Below are positions 1,618-60,632 of a DNA stretch of 64,000 bases, one piece after another. Below the pieces are notes generated by a model, which worked only from the letters and a program-made list of their open reading frames with translations, was not told where the DNA came from and made no database searches. Position 1 is the first letter of the stretch, and each line of letters starts with the position of its first letter. Origin of the DNA: Nitrospirota bacterium (GTDB taxonomy: Bacteria; Nitrospirota; Thermodesulfovibrionia; Thermodesulfovibrionales; UBA9159); NCBI GenBank assembly GCA_021790195.1, contig JAJYIF010000007.1, positions 24,192 through 88,191 on the forward strand, written 5' to 3'. The translations under genes were made by a program, and so were the position numbers.

Positions 1618-3405
1618 ATGAAAAAAATGCGTTTTTTGTTACTTGCCCCATTAGTCCTAGTTTTGACATTCGCCGGGTATCTTGAGGCCGGGGTTACAGG
1701 GGTTCCCGACCATGTTCCGGCGGCGACGGTAATCGTGCCCTATTTCGAGGTGGGGATCAATAGTACAGTCGACTGCAACGACACATTGCCTATTGTCAGG
1801 AATACCGGTTCGTCGCCTGTGACTGTTCACTATCAGGTGTGGGATGAATTCGGAAATGCACTTCCGGATCTGAGCGGCAATTTTAGTCTCGGCCCGCAGG
1901 CGACGAAGACTATCACTATCAGGTATCTTATCGTTAACGCGTCTGCCGCTTCGCTGAACGAGATGACGGACGGCGCTTTCTACAGGGGCTTCATGACGTT
2001 CGACGTAGTTACTTCTTCAACCTCTTTGACTCCTAAAGCGGCCGGTTATCCTTTCGGAAACGATAATGTCCTGGAGGGGCTGGTATATTACACAAGATTG
2101 TGCCAGGGCTCTTCAAACGGGCTGCCCATGATTTCCATAGAAGCGACTCCTTCATCTTCGATGTCGGGATTTTATCAGACCTCCGACAACAGGGAGAGGA
2201 TTGATGCGGATGCCCGTTACTCCGCGGAACAGGGCGCCTTAATGCCGGCCCCGGGTAACGCCATAGGCGAAGTGGATGCCAGGGTATTTCTTGACCCTAA
2301 CAACAACGGTACCAGCAAGGTAGTCGTATTTACTTTTCCCCGGGGAGGCTACTGCGTGAGTTGCGGCCCGGGACAAATCGCCTATAAACATTATGACGAA
2401 AGTGGGAATCTTGTGGAAGATACCTCCGTCAATCTCGACCGCATAGTAAACGTCATTAATGTAACCGGCACGCAAAACGGCGACATCTCTCTCCGGAACA
2501 TCCCGGGGGGCTGGGAGACTTTTGCCTTTTCCACGAATTCTGCAAGCCCCGGATTTAATCCTGCCCTCACCTGGGATGCCATTTTTGAGGCGTCCGTTAA
2601 GGTGGCTGCCGGCGGGACCATCAGCGGCATGGCGGTTAAGGGGCCTGTGGCGGGAGCGACGGTGACGGCGTTTGCCGTAAGCAACGGCGTTGTGGGCGGC
2701 CAGATAGGAACCGGGCAGACAGACGGACAGGGTAATTTCTCAATCCCGGTCGGCAATTATGCCGGTCCCGTTTTGCTGCAGATGAAGGGCGGGACTTACA
2801 CGGACGAAGCGACCAGTGTTGTGATGTCGATGCAACCGGGCGACATGATGACGGCCGTTATCCCTTCTATATCTTCCGGTGATGCGGTGGGCGGAATCCG
2901 GATGACCCCGCTGACTTCAATGGCCCAGACGATGGCGCAGGGAATGCCGGGTGGAATGACTCCTGCAAATATCGCCACGGCTAACACCTCGGTCGGCAAT
3001 TACTTCGTGGTAAGCGACATCCTGCACGTCGCTCCGATGGACCCTTTGGTCACGGGATCCGGCAACAGCGCAGACCAGAATATGAGGAATTACGGAATGG
3101 CTATCGCCGCTATGTCACAGTATGCAAGCAGCATAGGGCTGCAGTATTCTTCGGCTATAGTAACCGCAATGATGAATGACGCTTCGGACGGACTTATGAA
3201 TGGTATGATGGGCGGCTCACCGGTGCAGATGGGAAGCGGCGGCATGATGGGCGGCAGCATGATGTCCTCCAGCGCGGGCACAAGCGGACTGGCAAATGCC
3301 ATGACGCAATTCATGAACTCGCAGATGAACAGATCCGGCCTGACCGTTCAGGAAATGCAGACGCTGATCAATAAACTCATGACCTCTAACGGAGTGATCC
3401 AATAG
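1618..3405 (+). CDS. secreted protein: unknown N-terminal domain, carboxypeptidase-regulatory-like beta-sandwich, Met/Gly-rich C-terminal tail
   Basis: GGAGG lies before the ATG and the signal peptide is MKKMRFLLLAPLVLVLTFAGYLEAG. The segment ISGMAVKGPVAGATVTAFAV...GQTDGQGNFSIPVGNYAGPVLLQMKGGTY resembles CarboxypepD_reg-type domains. The tail contains runs such as MMNDASDGLMNGMMGGSPVQMGSGGMMGGSMM. Confidence 0.8.
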   Translation: MKKMRFLLLAPLVLVLTFAGYLEAGVTGVPDHVPAATVIVPYFEVGINSTVDCNDTLPIVRNTGSSPVTVHYQVWDEFGNALPDLSGNFSLGPQATKTITIRYLIVNASAASLNEMTDGAFYRGFMTFDVVTSSTSLTPKAAGYPFGNDNVLEGLVYYTRLCQGSSNGLPMISIEATPSSSMSGFYQTSDNRERIDADARYSAEQGALMPAPGNAIGEVDARVFLDPNNNGTSKVVVFTFPRGGYCVSCGPGQIAYKHYDESGNLVEDTSVNLDRIVNVINVTGTQNGDISLRNIPGGWETFAFSTNSASPGFNPALTWDAIFEASVKVAAGGTISGMAVKGPVAGATVTAFAVSNGVVGGQIGTGQTDGQGNFSIPVGNYAGPVLLQMKGGTYTDEATSVVMSMQPGDMMTAVIPSISSGDAVGGIRMTPLTSMAQTMAQGMPGGMTPANIATANTSVGNYFVVSDILHVAPMDPLVTGSGNSADQNMRNYGMAIAAMSQYASSIGLQYSSAIVTAMMNDASDGLMNGMMGGSPVQMGSGGMMGGSMMSSSAGTSGLANAMTQFMNSQMNRSGLTVQEMQTLINKLMTSNGVIQ

Positions 3406-11327: not shown

Positions 11328-12585
11328 CTCCGTTTATCCCATAAAGTTTCTTGATCATTGCGACAAGTACGTCCTTGTCTTCCGCGTCCTCTCTGAGGGC
11401 GACCGTCGGCGGGTGAATCAGTTTATTGGTTATAGCTGATGCCATATATTCGATCGCCTTCTTCTCCTTCTCTCCCAGCCCCGGGAACTTGTTGATGAGC
11501 TTTTCCAGTTCCTCTTTCTTTATCAGCTCTGCCTTGTTCCTGAGGGCCACCACGGTAGGCACCGAGCTGAGAGAGGACATCCATCTCCTGAAAGATTCGA
11601 TCTCTTCCCCGATTATAGTCTCGGCCTTTTCGGCCTCCTTCTGACGCTCCGATATATTCGCGTCCACGACTCCCTGCAGATCGTCCACGTCATAAAGGTA
11701 TACATTGTCGAGGTCGTTTGTCTCCGGATCGATGTTCCTAGGCACCGATATGTCGATAATGAATACCGGCTTCTGCTTGCGCTCCCTCATCACCTTCTGC
11801 ATCTCCTCTTTTCGAAGCACGTAGGCGGGCGCGCCCGTGGAGCATATGATAATGTCCGTATGGACCGCCTCGTGAAGGAAGTCCTCAAACTTGACCGCCC
11901 TTCCGTTCAGCTCCTTTGCGAGCTCGCATCCCCTCTCGAATGTCCTGTTGACCACGACCACTTTCGTCACGCCGAAGTTCATCATATGCTTTGCAGCGAG
12001 TTCGGCCATCTCACCCGCGCCGAGGAGCATAAAGGATTTTTCCGGGAGGTCGGTGAATATCTTCCTCGCAAGTTCCAGGGCCGCGAAACTGATCGAAACC
12101 GCATTCTCCGCTATCCGGGTCTCGGTCCTCACCCTCTTTGCAACGGAGATGGTCTTCTTCATCAACCTGTTGAGCAGGATACCTGTTGTCTTCTTTTCGA
12201 GAGCGAACTCGAAAGCGTCCTTGAGCTGACCCAATATCTGCGGCTCGCCGACAACCATGGAGTCGAGGCTCGAACCGACCCTGAAGACGTGTCTGACCGC
12301 ATCCAGGTTCCTGTAGAGGTAAAGCGATTTTTCGAGGGCGGCGCTCTTTAAGCCGTGGAACTCCGAAAGGAAGGCCTTTACCTGATCGAATGCTGTCTCA
12401 GGCTCCTTTACGTTTAAGTAAATCTCAACCCTGTTACATGTCGAGAGGATTATCGCCTCCTCAACGCCCGGCAGACCGCCGAGTTTGAGCAAACCCTCGC
12501 TGAGCTTCTCTCCGTTGAAGGCAAGCCTCTCTCTCACCTCCACATCCGCAGTCTTATGGTTCAAACCGACGACGAGGATATTCAT
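11311..12585 (-). CDS. hemA: glutamyl-tRNA reductase
   Basis: MNILVVGLNHKTADVEVRERLAF...ILSTCNRVEIY...LLGAGEMAEL. It overlaps hemC by 17 nt. Confidence 0.93.
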   Translation of the reverse strand: MNILVVGLNHKTADVEVRERLAFNGEKLSEGLLKLGGLPGVEEAIILSTCNRVEIYLNVKEPETAFDQVKAFLSEFHGLKSAALEKSLYLYRNLDAVRHVFRVGSSLDSMVVGEPQILGQLKDAFEFALEKKTTGILLNRLMKKTISVAKRVRTETRIAENAVSISFAALELARKIFTDLPEKSFMLLGAGEMAELAAKHMMNFGVTKVVVVNRTFERGCELAKELNGRAVKFEDFLHEAVHTDIIICSTGAPAYVLRKEEMQKVMRERKQKPVFIIDISVPRNIDPETNDLDNVYLYDVDDLQGVVDANISERQKEAEKAETIIGEEIESFRRWMSSLSSVPTVVALRNKAELIKKEELEKLINKFPGLGEKEKKAIEYMASAITNKLIHPPTVALREDAEDKDVLVAMIKKLYGINGDEEEK

Positions 12586-13406
12586 ACAAAAGCATGAAGC
12601 CCTTTTAAGAGGAGATTAACACCGAAGAAAGTGAAGATCACACTGAGGAAGCCCACAATGGAGAGTATGGCGGCCTTTCTCCCCCGCCAACCCGCGGTCA
12701 GGCGGGCATGAAGCACGAGGGCATAGATGAACCATGTGATCAGCGACCACACCTCTTTCGGGTCCCATCTCCAGTAGCTTCCCCACGCGCTCTCGGCCCA
12801 GAGGGCGCCGGTTATGATAGCGAGAGTGAGCAGCGGGAAGCCGAGAGTGATGAGCCTGTAATTGATTTCATCCAGGATCTGGAGATTGGGAAGCCTGTCG
12901 AACAATCCCCCGAGGCGCTTGGACTTCAGGTGATGCTCCTGGATGAGGTACATTATGCCGATTCCGAAAGCGGTCGCGAAGGCGGCGTCTCCGAGAAAAG
13001 CCAGGAATGTGTGTATGCCAAGCCAGTAGCTCTGAAGCACCGGGCTCAGCGGCTTTATCTCTCTCGGCAGAATAGAGGACGAAAGCATAAGCACGAACAC
13101 TATCGGCATTGTGAAAGGACCGAGGAGGTCGATCCTGTAGCGGTATTCGAGGAAAAAGAAGATTACGACTATGCACCACGCAAAAAAAGACGAGGCCTCG
13201 TGGAGACTCGTAATGGGGAGATGCCCCGAAACCGTATACCTCACCACGATCGTCGCGGAATGCAGGACAAAGCCGGCAACGGCAAAGACGAGAACAAAAT
13301 TGGACGTCTTCTTTGTGCCTTTGAAGAGCTCCACGATGCCCACGATGGCGGCCGCGAAATAGAACGTCAGGCTGAGTTCAAAAAGAAGCACACTCATCAG
13401 AAACAA
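12582..13406 (-). CDS. cytochrome c assembly protein, CcsA/HemX family
   Basis: Polytopic membrane protein with the Trp-rich motif WAESAWGSYWRWDPKEVWSLITW. It overlaps the hemA start by 4 nt. Confidence 0.8.
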   Translation of the reverse strand: MFLMSVLLFELSLTFYFAAAIVGIVELFKGTKKTSNFVLVFAVAGFVLHSATIVVRYTVSGHLPITSLHEASSFFAWCIVVIFFFLEYRYRIDLLGPFTMPIVFVLMLSSSILPREIKPLSPVLQSYWLGIHTFLAFLGDAAFATAFGIGIMYLIQEHHLKSKRLGGLFDRLPNLQILDEINYRLITLGFPLLTLAIITGALWAESAWGSYWRWDPKEVWSLITWFIYALVLHARLTAGWRGRKAAILSIVGFLSVIFTFFGVNLLLKGLHAFV

Positions 13407-34306: not shown

Positions 34307-35247
34307 TACATCTCCTCAATTATCGCCGCGGCGAGCAGAGGAAACATTATCTCGTGATGTCCGGTAAGGGCGTATGACCTGCCCTTCTTCAGGGTAGGTC
34401 TGCAAAGGACATTCTCCCTGGGGCGGTAATGCTGAATAAAATCCATGTTGACAGTGGTAATGTCCTCGACCTTATTGCCGAGGTTTCTCGCTACGGTCAA
34501 GGCCTTCAGGAAGACCTCCGGCATGATGACGGCGGAGCCGAGGTTGATGTAGACGCCGCCTTCAAGGTCAGCGATGACCGAAGCGAACAGCTTGAAGTCG
34601 CGCAGACTTCCCTTCCCGATCCTCGAACCGTCCGCATCGGGGTGCATATGAATTATATCCGATCCCAGGGCAACGTGGACGGTGGCGGGGATGCCGAGCC
34701 TGAAGCTCTCGGAGAAGATACTCTTGTCCTTCATGGCGTTCTTACTCTCGTAAATGTATCTGCCCACCGAATTTCCTATTCCGTATCCTTTTCCGACGCC
34801 TCTGTTTATCGCCCTGTTCAACTCCCTCCCCGTTTCCCTCGCCATACCGAACCTGCCGCTGCAAAGTTCACTCGCGACATCCTCCGAAGTTCTTCCGAGA
34901 AGAGAAAGCTCAAAATCATGGATGATGCATGCGCCGTTAGTTGCTACGGCAGTGATTATCCCCTTTCTCATCAGGTCGATGATAACCGGCGAGAGTCCGA
35001 CTTTTATGGGATGTGCCCCCATCCCCAGGACAACGGGCCTGCCGCGTCTGCGCGCACCGGCAACTGCATGTACAACCGACTTCAGGTCTGCCGCGGCAAG
35101 CACGGACGGAAGGTCCTCCGTGAACTCACGGAAAGAGGCCCCTCTTGCATGAGGGACGGCGGCCATTCCCATCTCCACCTTGCTTTTTCTCAAGGAAAGG
35201 GGGTATGTCTTCACTTTCTTAAGGGATACGGGTTTATACTTTTTCAT
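34306..35247 (-). CDS. deoxyhypusine synthase-like family protein (putative)
   Basis: Several blocks parallel deoxyhypusine synthase. [41 protein letters not shown] matches [58 protein letters not shown] matches HIPVFSPALTDGSLGDM. The C-terminal FPLLAAAI matches FPLLVAETF. Confidence 0.55.
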   Translation of the reverse strand: [313 protein letters not shown]

Positions 35248-35292
35248 GCCTTATTCCAGTGTTTACGCGAGATCGTTGTTGAACATGCGTCA

Positions 35293-36765
35293 ATGAATAA
35301 ATTATATTTGATAATGAAAAAATTTGCACAGCCGCCTTCCCCCAAAAAAATGTCCGGCACGTTCCCGCCTGACTACATCGAAAACAACAATGCTTCAGAT
35401 ACAAACAAGCGTCTTTTATATATATTACTCATATCTCTTAGTGTGAGGATACTCGTCCCGCTTATTGTAGTTCTCACCTCCGGCGATTACAGGCTTTTCT
35501 ATAGCCCGGACACCTTCACTTATCTAAGACCGGCGGAAGAGCTTCTGCTTAACGGCCGCTTCTATAGCAATGGCGTCCCGGAGATCTTCAGGACCCCCGG
35601 ATATCCCGTGTTCCTGATTCCCGGAATCCTTGTCGGCCATGTGGAAATAGTAACTATTGTTATGCAAATAGCTCTAAGCTGCATGACCGCCTATTTTGTC
35701 TTCAAAATATCACTGCTTCTCTTCAAGAATACCAGGGTTGCATTAATCAGCGCTTTCTTATGCGCAATTGAACCGGTCTCGGCGCTTTACGCTTCCAAGT
35801 TGCTGTCGGAAACGTTATTTGCGTTTCTGAGCACACTGTCTGTCTACTGCCTCATACAGTATTTCAGGACAAATTCGATAGGGACACTGTTGTTCTCTTC
35901 GGCACTCATCTCTTTTTCCACATACGTTCGGCCGGCAGGTTATTTCTTTCCGTTCGTCGTTCTGGCAGTCTTGCTCTTCAGGTCTTTCAGGAAGAAGAAG
36001 ATTATTCTCCTGACACACGCCTTCGGTTTTCTTCTATGCTCGTTATTGATCATAGGTCTTTGGCATATACGAAATATAAAGGAAGCGGGTTTCTCGGGTT
36101 TTTCGTCGGTTGCCGACTACAATCTTTATTGTTACCAGGCTGCGTCCGTGCTTGCTATTAACGACAACGTACCTTACTATCAAGAGCATCACGATCTGGG
36201 TTGCGGAGATATGAAGGTGTATTTCCTAAACCACCCGGAACAGAGCAATTGGGACCGAGGTCGCATATATCGCTTCATGGGGAAAGAAGGAATGAGAATT
36301 ATCCTGAGAGAGCCACTGACCTATCTCCTCATTCATATCGAAGGGATGATCAGAACCTTGATCGACCCCGGCATCACCGAATACCTCATCATGTTTAAAC
36401 AATATTCATGGTCCGGGGGGCTGCTCGGTCAGATACTTGACCGCGGCTTGTTCGCCACGCTAACGGATTTTGCCGGGACCATGCCTGTATTCTTCTTCAT
36501 GATATTGATCGCGCTCGGGCTATATTTAGTGATATCGCTTGTCTCTACGGTTATCGCGCTCTCTCATGAAGACTTTCCTTTCTCTGCATCGACGGCAGTC
36601 ATTCTGTGTCTGCTGGCATATGATCTCCTCGTTTCGGGAGGTCCGGTAGGTTATCACCGTTTTCGTCTCCCTATGATGCCGATGATTTCGGTCTTTTCCG
36701 CTTACGGACTTTATTTGACCTCGCAGAAATGGAGGCGGCGGAAGACCGACGGCCCTTCACGATAA
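35293..36765 (+). CDS. GT-C fold glycosyltransferase (ArnT/PMT, family 39-like) membrane protein
   Basis: The track ORF 34429..36765 is antisense to the DHS-like gene until about 35290. The real product likely starts at ATG 35293 or 35314 (MKKFAQPPS...). It has about 11 TM helices and the segment YSPDTFTYLRPAEELLLNGRFY...RTPGYPVFL. Confidence 0.65.
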   Translation: MNKLYLIMKKFAQPPSPKKMSGTFPPDYIENNNASDTNKRLLYILLISLSVRILVPLIVVLTSGDYRLFYSPDTFTYLRPAEELLLNGRFYSNGVPEIFRTPGYPVFLIPGILVGHVEIVTIVMQIALSCMTAYFVFKISLLLFKNTRVALISAFLCAIEPVSALYASKLLSETLFAFLSTLSVYCLIQYFRTNSIGTLLFSSALISFSTYVRPAGYFFPFVVLAVLLFRSFRKKKIILLTHAFGFLLCSLLIIGLWHIRNIKEAGFSGFSSVADYNLYCYQAASVLAINDNVPYYQEHHDLGCGDMKVYFLNHPEQSNWDRGRIYRFMGKEGMRIILREPLTYLLIHIEGMIRTLIDPGITEYLIMFKQYSWSGGLLGQILDRGLFATLTDFAGTMPVFFFMILIALGLYLVISLVSTVIALSHEDFPFSASTAVILCLLAYDLLVSGGPVGYHRFRLPMMPMISVFSAYGLYLTSQKWRRRKTDGPSR

Positions 36766-48267: not shown

Positions 48268-48597
48268 ATGTTAAAGAAGAATTGCTGGGAATTCAAGAAA
48301 TGCGGCAGGCACGAGGGCGGAGGACATGTCAATGACCTCGGGGTCTGCCCTGCGGCCGTCAACGAAAAGCTTGATGGAACTCACGGCGGCAAGAATGCCG
48401 GAAGGGCCTGTTGGGTGGTGGCAGGGACAATGTGCGGCGGCAATATTCAGGGCACGTTTGCCCATAAGTACAATCAGTGCGAAAAATGCGAATTCTATAA
48501 GGCAGTGAAGGGTGAAGAGGGCTCGACCTTCGAAATGTCGATCGTCCTTCTCAACAGGATGAGAGCGTTGGAGAAGAAAGAGGCTTCAGTCCTTTGA
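48268..48597 (+). CDS. stand-alone two-CW domain (Cys-rich) protein
   Basis: GGAGG lies before the ATG. The two Cys-Trp motifs are [10 protein letters not shown] and [14 protein letters not shown], and QCEKCEFY follows. The protein has 7 Cys in 109 aa. Confidence 0.6.
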
Positions 48598-50879: not shown

Positions 50880-51605
50880 CTAGGCTCTTCTCTCTCTCCG
50901 GAGGTAGTAAATAGCCCCGAGTCCCGCAAGCACCATAAACATTATCATTCCCCATTCCGTCATAGTGGGCACGGATGCGGGAGGTGACCCACCGTAAGTA
51001 TGGTTATCAATAATTACACTAAAAGAGTAAGCTGAACCTGTAAAGATAACCTTGACGATACCTCCTGGATCTTGATAACCAAAAAAAACAGGGCTCGGAC
51101 CATTAACACTAATTGGCGAGGAAGTAAAGATTAAACCACCAGGTCCGTAGACTTTGGCTGTCACAGAATCAGGAAATCCAGAAAACGCTTCCAAATCTAT
51201 ACCCATGGCTATCACCGGTGAAGTGTAGTCTATTTCTAGTATTTGTGATGGACCGCATAGAATAGTCTTGGTATTCAGTCCGAAATAATTATTCCCATTC
51301 CACTGAATAAAAGAACCTGTAAAGACGTAGGTAGCACCAGAGTGTACCAAGCCTGGGCCTTGACCGTTTACAAGAGTAGTACTACCTAATGAGCCAACAG
51401 AGGTATCAACGCTCGAACTGCCGTCTGCAACATTATAAGATTCGAAATCGTCTGTGGTGCCTCCTCCAGATAGTAGCGTGTTGAGTGTTGTACGGTCTGG
51501 AATAACCGCTGCAATGCCATCCGCTACAAAAATGGCAAAGGTTATCAAAATAATTATTCCAAAGCATCCAGACAGTTTGATAATATGTCTGATTAAACCT
51601 GTCAT
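50880..51605 (-). CDS. secreted protein with IPTL-CTERM-type C-terminal sorting signal
   Basis: The C-terminus VPTMTEWGMIMFMVLAGLGAIYYLRRERRA matches the remembered IPTL-CTERM pattern (IPTLSEWGMI..TM..basic tail). It has an N-terminal TM/signal segment, GGAGG before the ATG, and visibly low G+C. Confidence 0.7.
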   Translation of the reverse strand: MTGLIRHIIKLSGCFGIIILITFAIFVADGIAAVIPDRTTLNTLLSGGGTTDDFESYNVADGSSSVDTSVGSLGSTTLVNGQGPGLVHSGATYVFTGSFIQWNGNNYFGLNTKTILCGPSQILEIDYTSPVIAMGIDLEAFSGFPDSVTAKVYGPGGLIFTSSPISVNGPSPVFFGYQDPGGIVKVIFTGSAYSFSVIIDNHTYGGSPPASVPTMTEWGMIMFMVLAGLGAIYYLRRERRA

Positions 51606-54888: not shown

Positions 54889-55986
54889 ATGAAAAAGAGA
54901 CTGTTTGTTGTACTGATTCTGGCGGCGGCCTTGGTGGGCTATATGGCATTCACAGGGTCCGTCGGTTACGGAAAAGAGTCCGGAGAAGGGCACGCGGTAG
55001 TTGCAAAGGTCGAATTGTCCAAGAAACCCATTACCTTTGACGGTATAGCTTATATAGCAGGACACGGCGGCCACATAGCTATCATCGACATGAGGACGAT
55101 GAAGTCGCCGACGGACGTGGAAAAAGACAGGATCGTTATCACCGAGGCCGGCTCCGAGATGGAGGGCAAGATAGCAGGTATGAGCTTTGAAAAGGTCCAG
55201 AAGGCCGGCGGAATGCACGGTCAGGCGCTTATAAAAGAGCACGGCGACAAGGTCCTCGTTGTGGGCACACTTGACGGCGATGTCTACAAGGTCGATCTCA
55301 AGACAGGTAAGAAGACCGGGCCCTGGAAGGTCGGCGAAAAGTTCTGCGGCGCCATTGTCGGTCCTGACGGAAAGATATACTTTGAAGACATGGCCGATGG
55401 TAACGTTTACGTCTGGGATTCAAAGACGCTGAAGACTGCGGACAAGATGCCGGTTGGAAAGGCCGTTTGCGGCATACAGTGGACCAAGAACGCGAAGAAG
55501 GCGTACATCACCGACATGCCTACCGGCATTGTGTATGTGTATGACTGGAAGACAAAGAAGAAGATCAAGGAGATCAAGAGCCCTGAGATGACGTTCATCC
55601 ATCAGGACAGAATGACACCCGACGGCAGGTACCTCTGGGTCAGCGCGCCGAACGAGTTCGATCCGGGCCTGAAGCCGGGCACCCACAAGAGCCAGGTCAT
55701 CATCATCGACACAAACACGGACAAGATAGTGAAACGGATAATCCTTCCGGACAACATAAGGCCGCACGATTTTGCGTTCACAGCTGACGGCAAGTACGCC
55801 CTGCTTTCATCCAGGACATACGGCGATGACAGCAAGCTCGTTGTCCTCGACAGAAAGAATGACCACATCGTGGAAGAGGTTTCGGCTTGTAAATCATGCC
55901 ACCAGCCGAACGGCATAGAAGTGAAGATGGACAAGGGTTCACCGCTTCTCTGCGGCATCACGGTTGACTGGCACCCCGGCAAGTAA
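54889..55986 (+). CDS. secreted YVTN-type beta-propeller protein with C-terminal CxxCH motif
   Basis: GGGAGG lies before ATG 54889, and the track start at 54844 lies within the GT repeat. The signal peptide is MKKRLFVVLILAAALVGYMAF. Blade-like repeats include DGNVYVWDSKT, GIVYVYDWKT, SQVIIIDTNT and KLVVLDRKN. CKSCH is encoded at 55888..55902. Confidence 0.75.
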   Translation: MKKRLFVVLILAAALVGYMAFTGSVGYGKESGEGHAVVAKVELSKKPITFDGIAYIAGHGGHIAIIDMRTMKSPTDVEKDRIVITEAGSEMEGKIAGMSFEKVQKAGGMHGQALIKEHGDKVLVVGTLDGDVYKVDLKTGKKTGPWKVGEKFCGAIVGPDGKIYFEDMADGNVYVWDSKTLKTADKMPVGKAVCGIQWTKNAKKAYITDMPTGIVYVYDWKTKKKIKEIKSPEMTFIHQDRMTPDGRYLWVSAPNEFDPGLKPGTHKSQVIIIDTNTDKIVKRIILPDNIRPHDFAFTADGKYALLSSRTYGDDSKLVVLDRKNDHIVEEVSACKSCHQPNGIEVKMDKGSPLLCGITVDWHPGK

Positions 55987-56019
55987 GTACCGAGCCGGTT
56001 CAGAAAACGCTTTGGCAAA

Positions 56020-56050
56020 GAAGGGGGCTGATGCAGCCCCCTTCTTTTTT
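56020..56050 (+). terminator. rho-independent terminator after the propeller gene
   Basis: GAAGGGGGCTG-atg-CAGCCCCCTTC followed by TTTTTT. Confidence 0.85.
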
Positions 56051-56142
56051 GACCCTGTTCGCAGAGGCCCGCAAAACAAGCGCTTTATTCATTGAGGCGG
56101 CAAGTCACGAATGCGAATGATAATGTTATAATAAGAAAGTTT

Positions 56143-57351
56143 ATGGCGTCAAAACTGAACATCATACTGTTTGCGATAAAGAACCTCCGCAGAAAAATGA
56201 CCCGCACCTTCCTGCTCCTCCTTGCGGTCACCGTGGTGACAGGCACACTCTTTTCGGCGACCCTCTTTATCTCCAGCATGCAGAACGCGCTTAAGATCGG
56301 CACTTACCGCCTTGGGGCTGACGTGCTTGTCGTGCCGTCGAAGTACGAGTCCGAGGCCCGCGCTGCGCTGCTTGCGGGCGAGCCCACGAGCTTTTACATG
56401 GACCGCTCGGTCCTCGACAAGGTGAGGGCGGTCGAAGGAGTCAAGAGAGCGTCCCCGCAGCTCTTCATAAAACCGACCTCGTTTACATGCTGTTTCAGCG
56501 TCGAGGCCTTTCTTGTGGCCTTCGATCCGGCTACGGACTTCACTATCACCCCGTGGCTTGAGAGGAACCTTAAGAAGCCGCTTGTCGGCAACCAGGTCAT
56601 AACCGGGAGGAACATACCCGTGATCGTCGGAGATACCATGCCTTTCTTCGGCACCCCCTTTAAAGTCGTAGGCACAATGGAGCCGACAGGCATGAAATTT
56701 TTCGACCAGTCCGTGTTCATGACCATGGATGCGGCCTATCAGATGGCCGAGAACTCCAAGACCAGGGCCATACAGCCGATTACCATAGAGAGAGACAAGA
56801 TCTCGGCCGTGCTCGTCCAGGTCCAGGAAGGTTTTTCTCCCGACAGGGCCGCCATCCGCATAGAGCACGATATTGACGGCGTCAAGGCGATAGCCTCTGA
56901 CGAAGTCATCAGCACGGTAAGGAAACAACTTGGAGGACTTCTGAAGGGGATCCTCGCGATCAGCGCCGTGTTGTGGGTTTTGGCGCTTTTGATGATGGGC
57001 TTCGCCTTCTCGATGATCGTAAACGAGCGTCAGAGGGAACTCGGCCTCCTGAGGTCCATGGGCGCCAGGAAGAGTCATGTATTCAAGCTTATAGTGACTG
57101 AGGCTGTCATCATCTCTTTGATGGGCGGGCTCGTCGGCCTGATATCAGGCTCGGCCCTCCTTGTCACGTTCAAGAACCTTATCCTTCACAGCCTTAAACT
57201 GCCCTACCTCTTGCCGCCGGTTTCGACTCTCATCGAGCTGGTCTTAGGCGCAGTGATATTCTCGATGCTGACCGGCCTCCTCGCTTCGCTCCTGCCGGCC
57301 ATATCTGCAAGCAGAATGGAGCCGTACGAGGCCATCAGAAAGGGGGAGTAG
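56143..57351 (+). CDS. ABC transporter permease, FtsX/MacB/LolE type
   Basis: The likely start is ATG 56143 (MASKLNIILFAIKNLRRKMTRTF...). TM1 is followed by a large periplasmic domain, then three TM helices (FtsX domain: NERQRELGLLRSMGARKSHV). The periplasmic domain contains an adjacent CC pair (TSFTCCFS). Confidence 0.85.
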   Translation: MASKLNIILFAIKNLRRKMTRTFLLLLAVTVVTGTLFSATLFISSMQNALKIGTYRLGADVLVVPSKYESEARAALLAGEPTSFYMDRSVLDKVRAVEGVKRASPQLFIKPTSFTCCFSVEAFLVAFDPATDFTITPWLERNLKKPLVGNQVITGRNIPVIVGDTMPFFGTPFKVVGTMEPTGMKFFDQSVFMTMDAAYQMAENSKTRAIQPITIERDKISAVLVQVQEGFSPDRAAIRIEHDIDGVKAIASDEVISTVRKQLGGLLKGILAISAVLWVLALLMMGFAFSMIVNERQRELGLLRSMGARKSHVFKLIVTEAVIISLMGGLVGLISGSALLVTFKNLILHSLKLPYLLPPVSTLIELVLGAVIFSMLTGLLASLLPAISASRMEPYEAIRKGE

Positions 57352-57354
57352 ATC

Positions 57355-57792
57355 ATGATGCCAAGATCCGCCATGCTGCGTGTCTCCGTTTTTTTGTGTT
57401 CTTTGATGTTTGTGTTTCTTTTGCCTGTTTCCTCATATTCCCAGCCCTTCCCTATTCCCAAAGACACGCTTTGCGCGGAATGCGGGATGACGGTTAACCC
57501 GGATTCGAAGTTCTCTGCCGAGGTGATAACAACAGACGGGAAGAAGATGTTCTTTTGCGATATAGGGGACATGCTCCGTCACTTCAGATCGGACAGGGGA
57601 AAACTGAAAATAGTCTACGTAAAAGATTATAAGAGCGGCGCCTGGATTGAGGGTGCAAAGGCGTATTATGTTTTTGACAAGAGGTTCTCGACCCCGATGT
57701 CATGGAGCATTGCAGCCTTCCGGGAGGAGTCGGAGGCAAGGAAGTGGGGCAATCCCGTCGACTTCAAGGGGGCCTACGGACTGTTGAAATGA
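57355..57792 (+). CDS. nosL: NosL-family (copper-chaperone-like) protein
   Basis: A signal peptide is followed by DTLCAECGMTVNPDSKFSAEVITTDGKKMFFCDIGDMLRHF, the NosL pattern CxxCGM...FCD.G. Confidence 0.75.
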   Translation: MMPRSAMLRVSVFLCSLMFVFLLPVSSYSQPFPIPKDTLCAECGMTVNPDSKFSAEVITTDGKKMFFCDIGDMLRHFRSDRGKLKIVYVKDYKSGAWIEGAKAYYVFDKRFSTPMSWSIAAFREESEARKWGNPVDFKGAYGLLK

Positions 57793-58190
57793 TTATAAGC
57801 AGGAAGTTCGGGATAATGCTCTTCTTGATGGGACTTCTGGTATTGCTCACCCCGCGATACATACTGCCGACTTGCGAGTTTGAGGGCTATAGCAGGATGG
57901 CCTGCACTTATACCGGCACGGCGGAGATGTTTATAGGGGCCATCGTCATGATAGCGGCGGTGGGAATGATCCTGTCCAGGACCTACGAGGCCCTGAGGTG
58001 GTCGGGCCTCACTACTCTGGCTGCGGGCATAGCCGTGGTTTTTGTGCCTGATGCCATCGGATACTGCCACAACAGCCAGCACCCCTGCAATTACGGCACG
58101 GTCCCCATGCTCCGGCTGCTGGGGGCATTGATAATTCTTCTTTCTATAGCGGGTTTTATCATATCTCTTAAAGGAGAAAAAAGCAGATGA
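57789..58190 (+). CDS. 133-aa four-TM membrane protein with Cys/His-rich external loops (DUF4418-like)
   Basis: ATGA overlap with the nosL stop. Loop 1 reads PTCEFEGYSRMACTYTG and loop 3 reads GYCHNSQHPCNYG. Size and topology recall DUF4418, but this is not verifiable without an HMM. Confidence 0.6.
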   Translation: MIISRKFGIMLFLMGLLVLLTPRYILPTCEFEGYSRMACTYTGTAEMFIGAIVMIAAVGMILSRTYEALRWSGLTTLAAGIAVVFVPDAIGYCHNSQHPCNYGTVPMLRLLGALIILLSIAGFIISLKGEKSR

Positions 58191-58828
58191 AGAACCATAT
58201 TAGCTTTGCCGGAAAATTGCTGCTTGTGGCAGTGCTTCTTTTTGTCCTCTTGCCTGTTGTTTCCTGCAAGAAAGAACAGCCCCGCGAGGAGCAGAGAGCG
58301 GAGGCGCCTACCGTCAACCCATACTCCAGCGAGTCCGTCTACGGAGAAATAAAGAAGAGACTGGACGAGAACCCCAATGACGTGGATGCCCTTTACCATC
58401 TTGCAGATCTTTATTACCGCGACGCGCAGTACCCCGAGGCGATTGAGACGCTGAAGAAAGTCGTCAAACTGAAACCCGACATGGGATACGCCTACCTCAA
58501 GATGGGGACCGCTTATGATCGTCTCAATAAGCCTAAAGAGGCGATAGAAACCTTGAGGAAGGCTGCGAAGCACATGCCCAAGTATGCGGTAGTCTACAAC
58601 AACCTTGGGGTGGCTTACGGCAATAGCGGCAATCTCAATGAAGAGATAGGCGCCCTGAAAAAAGCGATAGAACTGAGACCGAACTACACGTCGGCCAGAT
58701 TTAATCTTGCGATAACCTACTCCAAGAAAGGAAACAAGAAGGCCGCGGAACAGCAATATGAGGCCCTGAAGAAATTCGACGAGGGCGCGGCCGAGGCCCT
58801 CAGGAAAGAGCTCGATAAGACTTCCTGA
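58187..58828 (+). CDS. TPR-repeat lipoprotein
   Basis: ATGA overlap with the preceding gene. The lipobox is LLPVVSC, and about 4 TPR units follow (ALYHLADLYYRDAQYPEAIETLKKVVKLKPD...). Confidence 0.8.
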   Translation: MKNHISFAGKLLLVAVLLFVLLPVVSCKKEQPREEQRAEAPTVNPYSSESVYGEIKKRLDENPNDVDALYHLADLYYRDAQYPEAIETLKKVVKLKPDMGYAYLKMGTAYDRLNKPKEAIETLRKAAKHMPKYAVVYNNLGVAYGNSGNLNEEIGALKKAIELRPNYTSARFNLAITYSKKGNKKAAEQQYEALKKFDEGAAEALRKELDKTS

Positions 58829-58865
58829 TGACGCCAGGCTTACATTTACAGGACCCGGAGGACAG

Positions 58866-59534
58866 ATGATAGAAGTCAAGGACCTGACGAAGACCTACGA
58901 TATCGACGGGCAGACCCTGAAGGCGGTAAATAACGTCTCCTTCGAGGTCGACAGAGGTGAAATGGTCTCAATCATAGGCCATTCAGGTAGCGGTAAGACG
59001 ACCCTTTTGAGTCTGATCGGCGGTTTGACGCGGCCCAATTCCGGCCGGGTGGTCATCGATAATGCGGACATATGGTCCATGGATGACGACAGCCTCTCCG
59101 GCTTCAGGAACAGGAAGATAAGTTTCATCTATCAATTTGCAAGCCTGATCCCCACGCTTACCACCCTCGAAAATATCGTGCTGCCGACCGCTTTTGGAAA
59201 CTACAGGGATGAGATCGTTAAGGACGCAAAGGAACTTCTCGGCATCGTCGGCCTCGCAGAAAAGGTCAACTCTTATCCGTCTCATCTCTCGGGAGGCCAG
59301 CAGCGCAGGATCGCTATTGCGAGGGCCTTCATAAACAGGCCCGAGATCATTCTTGCCGACGAGCCTACGGGGGACCTCGACGAAGAAACCGAAAACGAAG
59401 TTATACAGCTCTTCGACAGGATGAATACGGAAAGAGGGGTCACGTTTCTCATCGTAACCCACAACAAAGAGATTGCAGCCAGGGCAAAGAAAAAATTGAG
59501 TATGGTCAACGGGGTCCTCTCGGAGATCGGCTGA
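58866..59534 (+). CDS. ABC transporter ATP-binding protein (MacB/LolD family)
   Basis: Walker A GHSGSGKTT, signature LSGGQQRR, Walker B ILADEPTGDLD. Confidence 0.9.
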   Translation: MIEVKDLTKTYDIDGQTLKAVNNVSFEVDRGEMVSIIGHSGSGKTTLLSLIGGLTRPNSGRVVIDNADIWSMDDDSLSGFRNRKISFIYQFASLIPTLTTLENIVLPTAFGNYRDEIVKDAKELLGIVGLAEKVNSYPSHLSGGQQRRIAIARAFINRPEIILADEPTGDLDEETENEVIQLFDRMNTERGVTFLIVTHNKEIAARAKKKLSMVNGVLSEIG

Positions 59535-59613: not shown

Positions 59614-60285
59614 TTATTCCAGTCTCCCGTCCGCCATCTTCATCACACGGTGACAACGCTTTGAAAGGGCATCGTTGTGAGTGACTATTACAAAGGTTAT
59701 ACCGCGTTCTTTATTCAGTTTTACTAGCAGACTGAAGAGCTCATCGCCGGTTGCGGTATCGAGGTTCCCGGTGGGCTCGTCCGCAAGGACCACCTTAGGA
59801 TTGAGTATCAGTGCCCGCGCCACAGCTACCCTCTGCTGCTCGCCGCCGGAAAGCTCCCCTGGCCTATGGTCCCTTCTCTCGTGAACGTCGAGCTCCGAAA
59901 GGAGCTCTTCGGCCCGCGACCTTGTTTCCGCATAATTGCAGGACCCTACGAGACCCGGCATCATCACATTTTCGAGGGCGCTGAACTCGGGCAGAAGGTG
60001 ATGGAACTGAAACACGAAGCCGATCGTCCTGTTTCTGAAAAGCGCAAGGGAGCCATTGTCTTTGGAAAAGATATCGGCGCCTTCATAGAAAACCTTGCCG
60101 GAGGTGGGCCTGTCCAGGGTGCCCAGGACATGAAGGAAGGTGCTCTTGCCGACGCCTGAGGCCCCGACTATGGCAATGACCTCTCCCGGCCTTATCGAAA
60201 GGTCCACGCCCCTGAGGATCTTGAGCTCACCCGCAGGCGTATAAAAAGACTTTTCTATCTTTTGGGCCTCAACGAGGTTTGTCAT
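59614..60285 (-). CDS. LolD-like ABC transporter ATP-binding protein (no cognate permease adjacent)
   Basis: GASGVGKST, LSGGEQQRVAVARAL and VLADEPTGNLD. Confidence 0.85.
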   Translation of the reverse strand: MTNLVEAQKIEKSFYTPAGELKILRGVDLSIRPGEVIAIVGASGVGKSTFLHVLGTLDRPTSGKVFYEGADIFSKDNGSLALFRNRTIGFVFQFHHLLPEFSALENVMMPGLVGSCNYAETRSRAEELLSELDVHERRDHRPGELSGGEQQRVAVARALILNPKVVLADEPTGNLDTATGDELFSLLVKLNKERGITFVIVTHNDALSKRCHRVMKMADGRLE

Positions 60286-60520
60286 CTTTCTCTTTCTTGG
60301 CGTCTTTAGAGCCGGCTATCTCCTTTACTGTCTCCGTTGTCTTCCGGATGCCGTTTATGACGATATCGCTGCCCTTCTTGAGCTTGTCTGCCTTCTCTCC
60401 GACCTTCTCTGACTGCTGCTCGACCTTTTTCCCGAACCACCTGAACTTCTCACCTCCGCTATAAATAGATAGCGCGACAAAAACGACCGCGGCAATTATG
60501 CCGAGGAATATCAGTTTCAT
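60269..60520 (-). CDS. small single-TM protein with Lys/Glu-rich tail
   Basis: ATG 60520 gives MKLIFLGIIAAVVFVALSIYSGG..., and the track start at 60550 is TTG. It overlaps the LolD-like start by 17 nt. Confidence 0.5.
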   Translation of the reverse strand: MKLIFLGIIAAVVFVALSIYSGGEKFRWFGKKVEQQSEKVGEKADKLKKGSDIVINGIRKTTETVKEIAGSKDAKKEKDDKPR

Positions 60521-60632
60521 GATGAACTTGATCACATTCGTCTCCCGCAACGCAAATATTATTTGAGTTTACCAGACTCCCCGGTTTTTTGTCATTGTTG
60601 ACTTGGAACATCCCTGAATCATAGAATTATAA

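Follow-up and report, generated by a model that had tools for sequence, protein, structure and literature searches.

We analyzed a 64,000-nucleotide stretch of a Nitrospirota bacterium genome (contig JAJYIF010000007.1; hereafter the window) in which five co-directional genes on the + strand, with boundaries read directly from the sequence, span positions 56143-59534. These genes encode a type VII ATP-binding cassette (ABC) permease, a NosL-family protein, a four-transmembrane (TM) protein of the DUF4418 family, a TPR lipoprotein and an ABC ATPase, and they form a conserved unit with an upstream gene encoding a secreted beta-propeller. This uncharacterized cluster is conserved widely within one phylum, and we class it as a periplasmic metallochaperone machine that is NosL-dependent and ABC-coupled. 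The reading that we favor, at a probability of roughly 0.42, is that of a periplasmic machine of six components for copper delivery in anaerobic Nitrospirota (Thermodesulfovibrionales and relatives), in which ATP would drive the loading of Cu(I) onto the propeller. It is the combination of a complete NosL copper site, of ligand swaps of the kind expected for soft metals and of a link to cupredoxins in the Planctomycetes that leads us to favor ATP-driven Cu(I) delivery to the propeller.

The elements of the unit lie in the window as follows:

54889-55986, + strand: beta-propeller gene; secreted protein of 365 aa, probable partner or recipient of the ABC machinery
56017-56049, + strand: terminator-like hairpin between the propeller gene and the permease gene, with U6 after the stem
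56143-57351, + strand: ABC permease of type VII (MacB/FtsX), 402 aa; Pfam FtsX and MacB_PCD
57355-57792, + strand: NosL-family protein, 145 aa; Pfam NosL
57789-58190, + strand: DUF4418 four-TM protein, 133 aa; Pfam DUF4418
58187-58828, + strand: TPR lipoprotein, 213 aa; TPR families and a lipobox
58866-59534, + strand: ABC ATPase, 222 aa; Pfam ABC_tran

The conservation of this gene set was evaluated on 51 species-level genome loci, retrieved together with contig neighborhoods using the DUF4418 profile, by searching their open reading frames (ORFs) with hidden Markov models (HMMs) derived from the window proteins. The query for the locus scan was the closer DUF4418 alignment, which biased the recovered loci, both genomic and metagenomic, toward the Nitrospirota. 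Co-occurrence was counted over 33 genome and contig loci with complete flanks, a set dominated by this phylum. The permease and the ATPase were each found in 30 of these 33 loci, NosL in 27, homologs of the propeller encoded at 54889-55986 in 24 and the TPR lipoprotein in 21, with all five partners of DUF4418 present together in 19. An independent metagenome scan returned 16 full-flank contigs with a similar composition (propeller in 12, TPR in 9, and permease, NosL and ATPase in 15 each). The gene set is hence kept as a unit elsewhere, in the 33 full-flank loci and again in the 16 metagenome contigs, and it recurs in dozens of genomes and metagenome contigs that are independent of one another, far beyond what chance would produce. 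A previous reading of the window from its sequence alone (hereafter the sequence-only reading) had proposed a five-gene unit. The five genes are real, but the conserved unit comprises six, the upstream beta-propeller having been overlooked. With a co-conserved propeller as the probable recipient, the likely purpose of the system becomes the delivery of a cofactor instead of export.

At least five arrangements of the six genes were found, in species-level genomes and also in metagenome contigs. These are the order of the window (propeller-permease-NosL-DUF4418-TPR-ATPase), propeller-permease-TPR-NosL-DUF4418-ATPase, propeller-permease-TPR-ATPase-NosL-DUF4418, propeller-permease-ATPase-(NosL)-DUF4418 and propeller-NosL-DUF4418-permease-TPR-ATPase. 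Reduced forms (permease-ATPase-NosL-DUF4418, NosL-DUF4418 and DUF4418 alone) were also observed. The propeller and permease genes are adjacent in nearly all arrangements. That membership stays constant while the order is reshuffled argues that the genes are coupled in function, as opposed to being syntenic by inheritance. When the window proteins were compared with their counterparts in 26 six-gene loci, median identity was highest for the propeller (69%) and the permease (67%), followed by the ATPase (58%), the TPR protein (50%), NosL (44.5%) and DUF4418 (41.5%). A permease that exceeds its own ATPase in conservation is unusual and hints at a tight constraint on the periplasmic domain, possibly through contact with the propeller.

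The NosL-like protein bears on the metal involved. It matches Pfam NosL (PF05573) over residues 31-131 with 57.0 bits, against a cut-off of 24, and its ligand set (C40-x2-C43-G-M45, C68-x3-D72 and M115) is spaced as in S. denitrificans NosL. In the crystal structure of the latter, Cys59, Cys88 and Asp92 bind Zn, Cys62 bridges the metals, and Met64 and Met145 bind Cu; mutation of any of these ligands impairs copper delivery (PMC8457098). The equivalent Cu(I)-site residues C43, M45 and M115 are kept in 43/43, 43/43 and 42/43 NosL-like homologs, the Zn-site residues C40, C68 and D72 in 43/43, 40/43 and 42/43, and the CxxCGM motif in all 43. The ligands also align residue for residue with those of P. 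stutzeri NosL (7OSF, NosDFYL cryo-EM entries). Conservation of all six Zn/Cu ligands of the crystallized NosL strengthens the tentative suggestion of copper in the sequence-only reading, and the protein can be predicted to bind Cu(I). No lipobox Cys is present in the window protein, whose signal ends in ...SSYS|QP and is of the signal-peptidase-I type, and a lipobox-like match was found in just 5 of the 43 homologs. The occurrence of NosL homologs beyond nos clusters has been taken to imply that this chaperone is more widely used (PMC8457098).

The DUF4418 protein (PF14387; 75.3 bits, cut-off 27) has four TM helices in its AlphaFold2 (AF2) model, which presents a mean predicted confidence (pLDDT) of 79.7. 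According to the positive-inside rule, both of its Cys-bearing loops would face outward. In the window protein these loops carry the motifs P27-x-C29...M37-x-C39 and G91-x-C93...H98-P-C100. An exhaustive profile search identified 569 family representatives, and residue conservation was counted over 141 aligned members. C29, C39, C93 and C100 are each present in 138-141 of the 141, M37 in 127, and position 98, a His in the window protein, is Met in 124, defining the family signature P-x-C...M-x-C and G-x-C...[M/H]-P-C. The sequence-only reading had singled out 4 Cys and 2 His in the loops of this 133-aa protein, together with TSFTCCFS in the permease and CAECGM in NosL, and all these motifs are present. 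The Cys that it highlighted (in DUF4418, the permease CC pair and the NosL CxxCGM) are kept across homologs, but the two DUF4418 His are not, with H94 being variable in the family alignment.

With four TM helices and two conserved Cys in each outward loop, DUF4418 resembles DsbB and VKOR. It differs from them in having no CXXC and no significant fold or sequence match, and a relationship by homology was rejected, since the match to VKOR reaches just E 0.2-0.9. No significant fold match was obtained in the PDB with the AF2 model (best E-value 0.08). The Met-x-Cys motifs of the family point to putative metal binding rather than to DsbB/VKOR chemistry. In Bifidobacterium longum, DUF4418 and a neighboring permease shift expression together (PMC7701253). 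Combined with the presence of DUF4418-FtsX-ATPase trios in other phyla, this co-expression makes DUF4418 look like a dedicated partner of one type VII ABC subfamily.

The permease matches Pfam FtsX (71.8 bits, cut-off 25.5; residues 272-394) and MacB_PCD (37.3 bits, cut-off 27; residues 22-241), the latter corresponding to a periplasmic core domain between TM1 and TM2. Within this domain, the C116-C117 pair is kept in 40/45 and 44/45 homologs, and the DUF4418-linked permeases of Planctomycete, archaeon and Synergistetes-type contigs carry either CC or HC at this motif. By NCBIfam, both the permease and the ATPase belong to the MacB/LolCDE/FtsEX super-group. The permease falls far under all equivalog cut-offs (lolCE 42.3 against 362, MacB 49.1 against 966, FtsX 18.7-29.7 against 225-255). 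The ATPase (ABC_tran, 123.8 bits, cut-off 25) matches LolD best (234.9, cut-off 307.75), followed by FtsE, YbbA, DevA and MacB, all of them also under their equivalog cut-offs, so that it can be assigned to the LolD/MacB/FtsE type at the subfamily level only. The TPR protein matches many TPR families well over the Pfam cut-offs and has a VVSC27 lipobox whose Cys27 is invariant (34/34); it is a probable scaffold.

A second LolD-like ATPase is encoded next to the operon, at 59614-60285 on the - strand, and scores 286.8 bits on TIGR02211, just below the cut-off of 307.75. Its gene runs convergently to the operon, downstream of a 93-aa membrane-anchored ORF (60269-60550, - strand), with no LolC/E gene beside it. 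We considered this protein as a second nucleotide-binding domain for the system and found no support for it; lying on the opposite strand, it is better read as a syntenic neighbor. It recurs at the cluster end in many related loci, whatever gene comes last there.

The propeller has a Sec-type N-terminus without a Tat motif, and its AF2 model (pLDDT 82.6) shows a YVTN-type strand pattern of seven blades. Over 120 protein clusters share 70% identity or more with it. Its match to Pfam Cytochrom_D1 (PF02239; 41.5 bits, cut-off 25.5) is partial, covering only profile positions 213-361 of 368, and the Cytochrom_D1 domain is eight-bladed, whereas the propeller model looks seven-bladed. The conserved residues H59, H62, H110, C153, C194, H238, H293 and C355 fall at blade starts, and each of the seven blades has one conserved His or Cys no more than 2 residues from the start of its inner strand, at the 'P-x-G' position of YVTN repeats. 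Based on this sequence register and on the AF2 secondary structure, the conserved His and Cys are predicted to line the propeller hub. Position 59 is His or Met among homologs. In addition, a C334-x2-C337-H338 motif is located in the loop entering the last blade, and CXXCH is present in 31 of 32 propellers. A divergent subtype, found in four loci without a TPR gene, keeps only [H/M]59, H62, C153, H293, CXXCH and C355.

Several analyses addressed the identity of this protein. Its best NCBIfam match, the 'PQQ-dependent catabolism-associated beta-propeller protein' family, scores 43 bits against a cut-off of 287, and a profile search matched YncE (3VGZ) in the PDB. It was rejected as NosZ, as no nos_propeller family appeared at E <= 0.01 in the Pfam scan, and as L-NosZ, for which it scores 41.7 bits against an NCBIfam equivalog cut-off of 700. 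With 365 aa and none of the five diagnostic motifs, it also lies outside the 400-900 aa criterion, the length and motif criteria for L-NosZ being those quoted in bioRxiv 10.64898/2026.07.10.737647. Among 32 propeller homologs, the NosZ motifs CX2FCX3HXEM, DXHH/GXHH, PHG, GPLH and EPH occur in 0/32, 2/32, 0/32, 0/32 and 0/32, respectively.

The gene boundaries agree with the layout given by the sequence-only reading. The permease gene extends from the ATG at 56143, preferred to an upstream TTG at 56092 because homologs measure 395-403 aa, to the TAG at 57349-57351, and the NosL ATG (57355) sits 3 nt past this stop. The NosL stop and DUF4418 start overlap as ATGA (57789-57792), as do the DUF4418 stop and TPR start (58187-58190), and 37 nt separate the TPR stop (58826-58828) from the ATPase ATG (58866). 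The hairpin at 56017-56049 was detected by direct folding and was not picked up by a consensus terminator scan. It has a stem of 13-14 bp and a folding free energy of -26 kcal/mol (z -4.08), and among 200 shuffles none folded equally well, which suggests that the propeller gene is transcribed separately from the five-gene operon or that transcription is attenuated between them. Downstream of the ATPase gene, folding revealed no convincing terminator (z -1.2).

The family assignments of the sequence-only reading were also upheld, with every Pfam score above its curated cut-off, and so was its statement that the window holds no nos genes. No match to the NosZ, NosD, NosY or NosR families was obtained, and nosZ, nosD, nosY and nosR were not found in the 64-kb window, where the locus and 20 further ORFs were scanned with Pfam and the rest were judged by eye from their translations, rather than by HMM, to be housekeeping genes. 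The latter include cysS, RNase R, hemA/hemC, topA, argG, feoB, relA, leuS, uvrB and der. From its close homologs, the host is a Thermodesulfovibrionales-type member of the Nitrospirota, represented by a metagenome-assembled genome. Literature searches on DUF4418, NosL with FtsX and NosL with MacB found no account of this cluster or of DUF4418 function.

The closest functional analog of the cluster is NosDFYL-NosZ, and the closest structural family for its motor is MacB/LolCDE. As in NosDFYL of P. stutzeri (PDB 7OSF-7OSJ, 7ZNQ), the chaperone presents the C-x2-C-x-M, C-x3-[DE] and Met ligands, and an ABC ATPase and permease are encoded with NosL, next to the gene for a secreted seven-bladed beta-propeller. 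The structural gene is likewise set apart from the accessory operon; nosZ and nosDFYL are commonly transcribed separately, an arrangement that the hairpin preceding the five-gene operon mirrors. The differences are also substantial. Here a type VII permease (FtsX, 4 TM plus a periplasmic core domain) takes the place of the six-helix NosY, a NosD beta-helix is absent, NosL lacks the lipoprotein anchor, DUF4418 and the TPR lipoprotein are additional, and the propeller has neither NosZ motifs nor a cupredoxin (CuA) domain. With MacAB-TolC and LolCDE the system shares an FtsX plus MacB_PCD permease, a separate LolD-like ATPase and periplasmic handling of the substrate, but it lacks a MacA adaptor, TolC and the LolA/B logic, and it adds a DUF4418 partner that looks obligate and, in its periplasmic domain, the [C/H]C signature. 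L-NosZ (clade III, lactonase-type) similarly combines YVTN/lactonase-like seven-bladed propellers in the Nitrospirota with non-canonical accessory genes and a His at the 'P-H-x' blade-start position; it differs from the propeller described here in that the latter has Cys at three predicted hub positions and a CXXCH. In NosZ, the 'PHG' CuZ motif falls at the repeat position that 'P-H-D', 'M-H-G' and 'x-C-G' take at the blade starts of the propeller, a likeness of design rather than of family membership.

In the copper-delivery mechanism that we propose, all steps beyond sequence conservation are inferred. The propeller would be exported unfolded by Sec, as expected from an N-terminus without a Tat motif, and would fold as an apo-protein. 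The soluble NosL-type chaperone would capture Cu(I) at its Zn-stabilized Cys/Met site, by homology with NosL, and could pass it to thiolate and thioether sites at the outer face of the inner membrane, provided by the DUF4418 loops (4 Cys plus 2 Met/His) and by the [C/H]C motif of the permease. MacB-type transporters, including LolCDE, do not carry their substrate across the inner membrane; they pass ATP-driven motion to the periplasmic domain. In NosDFYL, too, an ABC motor moves Cu(I) out of NosL, via a periplasmic domain, and into the propeller enzyme NosZ. By analogy with MacB and LolCDE, turnover of the LolD-like ATPase would drive such mechanotransmission in the periplasmic domain of the permease, and this might free the metal into the His/Cys hub of the propeller, as suggested by the analogy with NosDFYL-NosZ. 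The TPR lipoprotein may serve as a docking scaffold. The periplasmic domain of the permease and DUF4418 would hence replace NosD and NosY, with the propeller replacing NosZ as the client.

The genomic context of other DUF4418 loci bears on the substrate of this machinery. Directly upstream of DUF4418-permease-ATPase, a Planctomycetes locus encodes a NapH/NosH-like Fer4_5 protein and two cupredoxins that carry the CuA motif CX3CX3HX2M, an arrangement that constitutes an independent link to copper. This locus (L055, 4785-11516; metagenome-assembled genome contig NJBM01000025.1) encodes, in order, an EB_dh+COX2 fusion, the Fer4_5 membrane protein, a 129-aa cupredoxin, DUF4418, the FtsX permease, the ATPase and a BamB/PQQ_2-type propeller. 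Of the two cupredoxins, both with the CuA motif, the 129-aa one is the nearer to DUF4418, and the two genes overlap by 4 nt. Overall, the locus looks like a nos-like electron-transfer/copper cluster without a recognizable NosZ.

A different context is found in L003 (1-4500), L005 (1-4350) and L027 (6224-7372), where permease-ATPase-NosL-DUF4418 or NosL-DUF4418, with no propeller or TPR gene, lie beside sulfur-trafficking genes. These are divergent genes for DsrE-like, rhodanese and Sulf_transp (YeeE/YedE) proteins in L003 and L005, and a Sulf_transp gene in L027. Outside the Nitrospirota, DUF4418-FtsX-ABC trios adjoin genes for NMT1-type binding proteins and a BPD_transp_1 importer in L060 (1286-10396), L062 (634-7467) and L063 (2654-8302). 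Radical-SAM and Nitro_FeMo-Co genes are adjacent in L060 and L062, with a NifH-like ATPase and a Cys/Met pyridoxal-phosphate (PLP) enzyme also present in L060, and the context of these three loci suggests organosulfur use or cofactor metabolism. In the Dissulfurispiraceae locus L065 (1-2622), two tandem NosL genes, a 101-aa ORF, another FtsX permease and an AhpC/TSA-type thiol peroxidase/redoxin are located about 5 kb from, and on the opposite strand to, a propeller-permease-TPR-ATPase cluster without NosL and DUF4418.

Several observations weigh against copper delivery to the propeller. The propeller is missing in 9 of the 33 full-flank loci, and some loci contain just NosL-DUF4418, or DUF4418 by itself. 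The trios outside the Nitrospirota adjoin sulfonate-type importers and NifB/NifH-like genes instead of copper genes, and three propeller-less Nitrospirota loci adjoin genes for DsrE, rhodanese or YeeE sulfur-trafficking proteins. Foldseek searches with the propeller returned just generic YVTN/WD40 propellers, with no NosZ in the top 50, and a profile search of PDB sequences detected no NosZ chain at E <= 10. The propeller CXXCH could simply be a heme c site, and the conserved Cys pairs on the periplasmic side might form structural disulfides. Regarding the latter, Cys are replaced by His, or His by Met, at three sites (CC/HC in the permease, position 98 in DUF4418 and position 59 in the propeller), swaps that argue for metal ligation over disulfides or persulfide carriage.

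Other roles for the system can be considered. One would be detoxification, with NosL and the Cys/Met-rich membrane proteins capturing periplasmic Cu(I) or Ag for a MacB-type pump to expel or sequester, and the propeller acting as a sink or being an unrelated neighbor. The ligand chemistry of DUF4418, NosL and the permease motif is of the soft-metal type, MacB-type pumps do work on periplasmic substrates, and in one locus (L066) an ArsR-type regulator and an RND/MFP/OEP efflux set are encoded nearby. This set includes an RND (ACR_tran) pump of its own and is found on the opposite strand, about 2.4 kb upstream. In none of the inspected loci does the cluster contain a MacA-like adaptor or a TolC-like gene, and no MFP/HlyD or OEP gene lies within it in the window, L001, L003, L005, L008, L065 or L066. 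With no membrane-fusion or outer-membrane partner in the annotated loci inspected, the extrusion contemplated by the sequence-only reading is unlikely. Furthermore, no metal-sensing regulator was identified in the window, and the propeller, co-conserved through order shuffling and the most constrained member of the unit, would be left unexplained. We consider detoxification unlikely. The propeller might instead be a periplasmic subunit of the transporter, of the YncE/PedA2 type, in a system that traffics metal for general use. YVTN propellers of this type in other ABC operons provide a precedent, as do the PDB match to YncE and the fact that the propeller's best NCBIfam family, even if scoring far under its cut-off, occurs in transport operons; the adjacency and equal conservation of propeller and permease are also in line with a subunit. 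However, the terminator parts the propeller gene from the operon, most of the loci without a propeller still have the ABC set, and type VII ABC systems are not known to act as importers, which makes this role rather improbable.

The sulfur-related contexts raise the alternative that the conserved Cys carry persulfide or polysulfide through the periplasm, for sulfur metabolism or as the source of sulfide for a Cu-S cluster. In addition to the genes flanking L003, L005 and L027, this would fit the NMT1-type (sulfonate-like) importers, Cys/Met PLP enzyme and NifB/NifH-like genes adjoining the trios of other phyla, and the host order, which is a sulfate-reducer lineage. The sulfur genes are nonetheless divergently oriented and found only in loci without a propeller, the Zn/Cu site of a proven Cu chaperone is complete in the NosL-like protein, and the presence of His or Met in place of Cys at key positions fits metal ligation and not persulfide carriage. 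We therefore regard a sulfur relay as quite improbable. A mixed role can also be conceived, with the system providing the Cu as well as the S of a Cu-S center. Lastly, the CXXCH found in nearly all propellers could receive heme c, with DUF4418 acting in a DsbB/VKOR-like manner to keep the motif reduced and the TPR protein chaperoning the apo-protein as a CcmI-like factor. The topology and Cys-pair layout of DUF4418, the appearance of VKOR among its weak fold matches and a weak match of the TPR protein to TPR_CcmH_CycH (31.4 bits, cut-off 42) are in agreement with this scenario, as is a CcsA-like gene elsewhere in the window. The VKOR match is not significant, though, and DUF4418 lacks the CXXC; the TPR cross-match is generic, and NosL and the permease [C/H]C have no role in known cytochrome c biogenesis. 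Heme or thiol maturation hence appears very unlikely.

The CcsA-like gene (12582-13406, - strand) encodes a CcsA/HemX-like 'Cytochrome C assembly protein' (179 bits) within a hemA-hemC gene group, and bears on whether the propeller CXXCH could receive heme c.

The copper-delivery reading has implications beyond this locus. NosL has so far been understood only as the Cu donor of the NosDFY machinery for nitrous-oxide reductase, and the established roles of type VII ABC transporters lie in efflux, in the release of lipoproteins and in cell division. If correct, Cu(I) loading of the propeller would represent a second ATP-driven route to periplasmic copper sites, working differently from the first, and would provide the first functional context for DUF4418. 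It would also turn an abundant and strongly conserved propeller of sulfate-reducer-type Nitrospirota into a candidate new metalloenzyme. A more specific and doubtful proposal is that anaerobic Nitrospirota possess, in the propeller, a hitherto unrecognized periplasmic metalloenzyme with a Cu or Cu-sulfide hub (His/Cys/Met), a heme c CXXCH for electron entry and a new class of assembly machine. Were this the case, the propeller would embody a NosZ-like catalytic design without a CuA domain, a MacB-type ABC transporter, DUF4418 and a soluble NosL would stand in for NosDFY, and the DUF4418-linked MacB systems of other phyla, such as that beside the Planctomycetes CuA cupredoxins, would constitute a general, overlooked pathway of cuproprotein maturation. 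Unconventional N2O reductases have recently been found in the same Nitrospirota lineages. Clade III nosZ genomes in this phylum have been noted to be devoid of canonical accessory genes and to carry transporter genes nearby that are unexplained (PMC13477213). The Nitrospirota are thus a sensible lineage in which to seek alternative assembly systems.

Other features of the window deserve mention. The longest ORF (34429-36765, + strand; 778 aa) matches the PMT_2 glycosyltransferase family only from residue 401, and its N-terminal half probably reflects an ORF called too long and not a real protein segment. At 48268-48597 (+ strand), a short ORF rich in Cys (109 aa) presents several CxxC-like pairs. 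A 241-aa secreted protein (50880-51605, - strand) ends in an IPTL-CTERM sorting motif (PF18203; 22.6 bits, cut-off 20.8), which implies the presence of an exosortase/archaeosortase-type sorting system in this genome. Finally, a 595-aa secreted protein with no Pfam match is encoded at 1618-3405 on the + strand. The C-terminal third of this protein is rich in Met and Gly (MMGGSMMSSS, MAQTMAQGMPGGM), with Met-rich tracts like those found in periplasmic copper-binding proteins.

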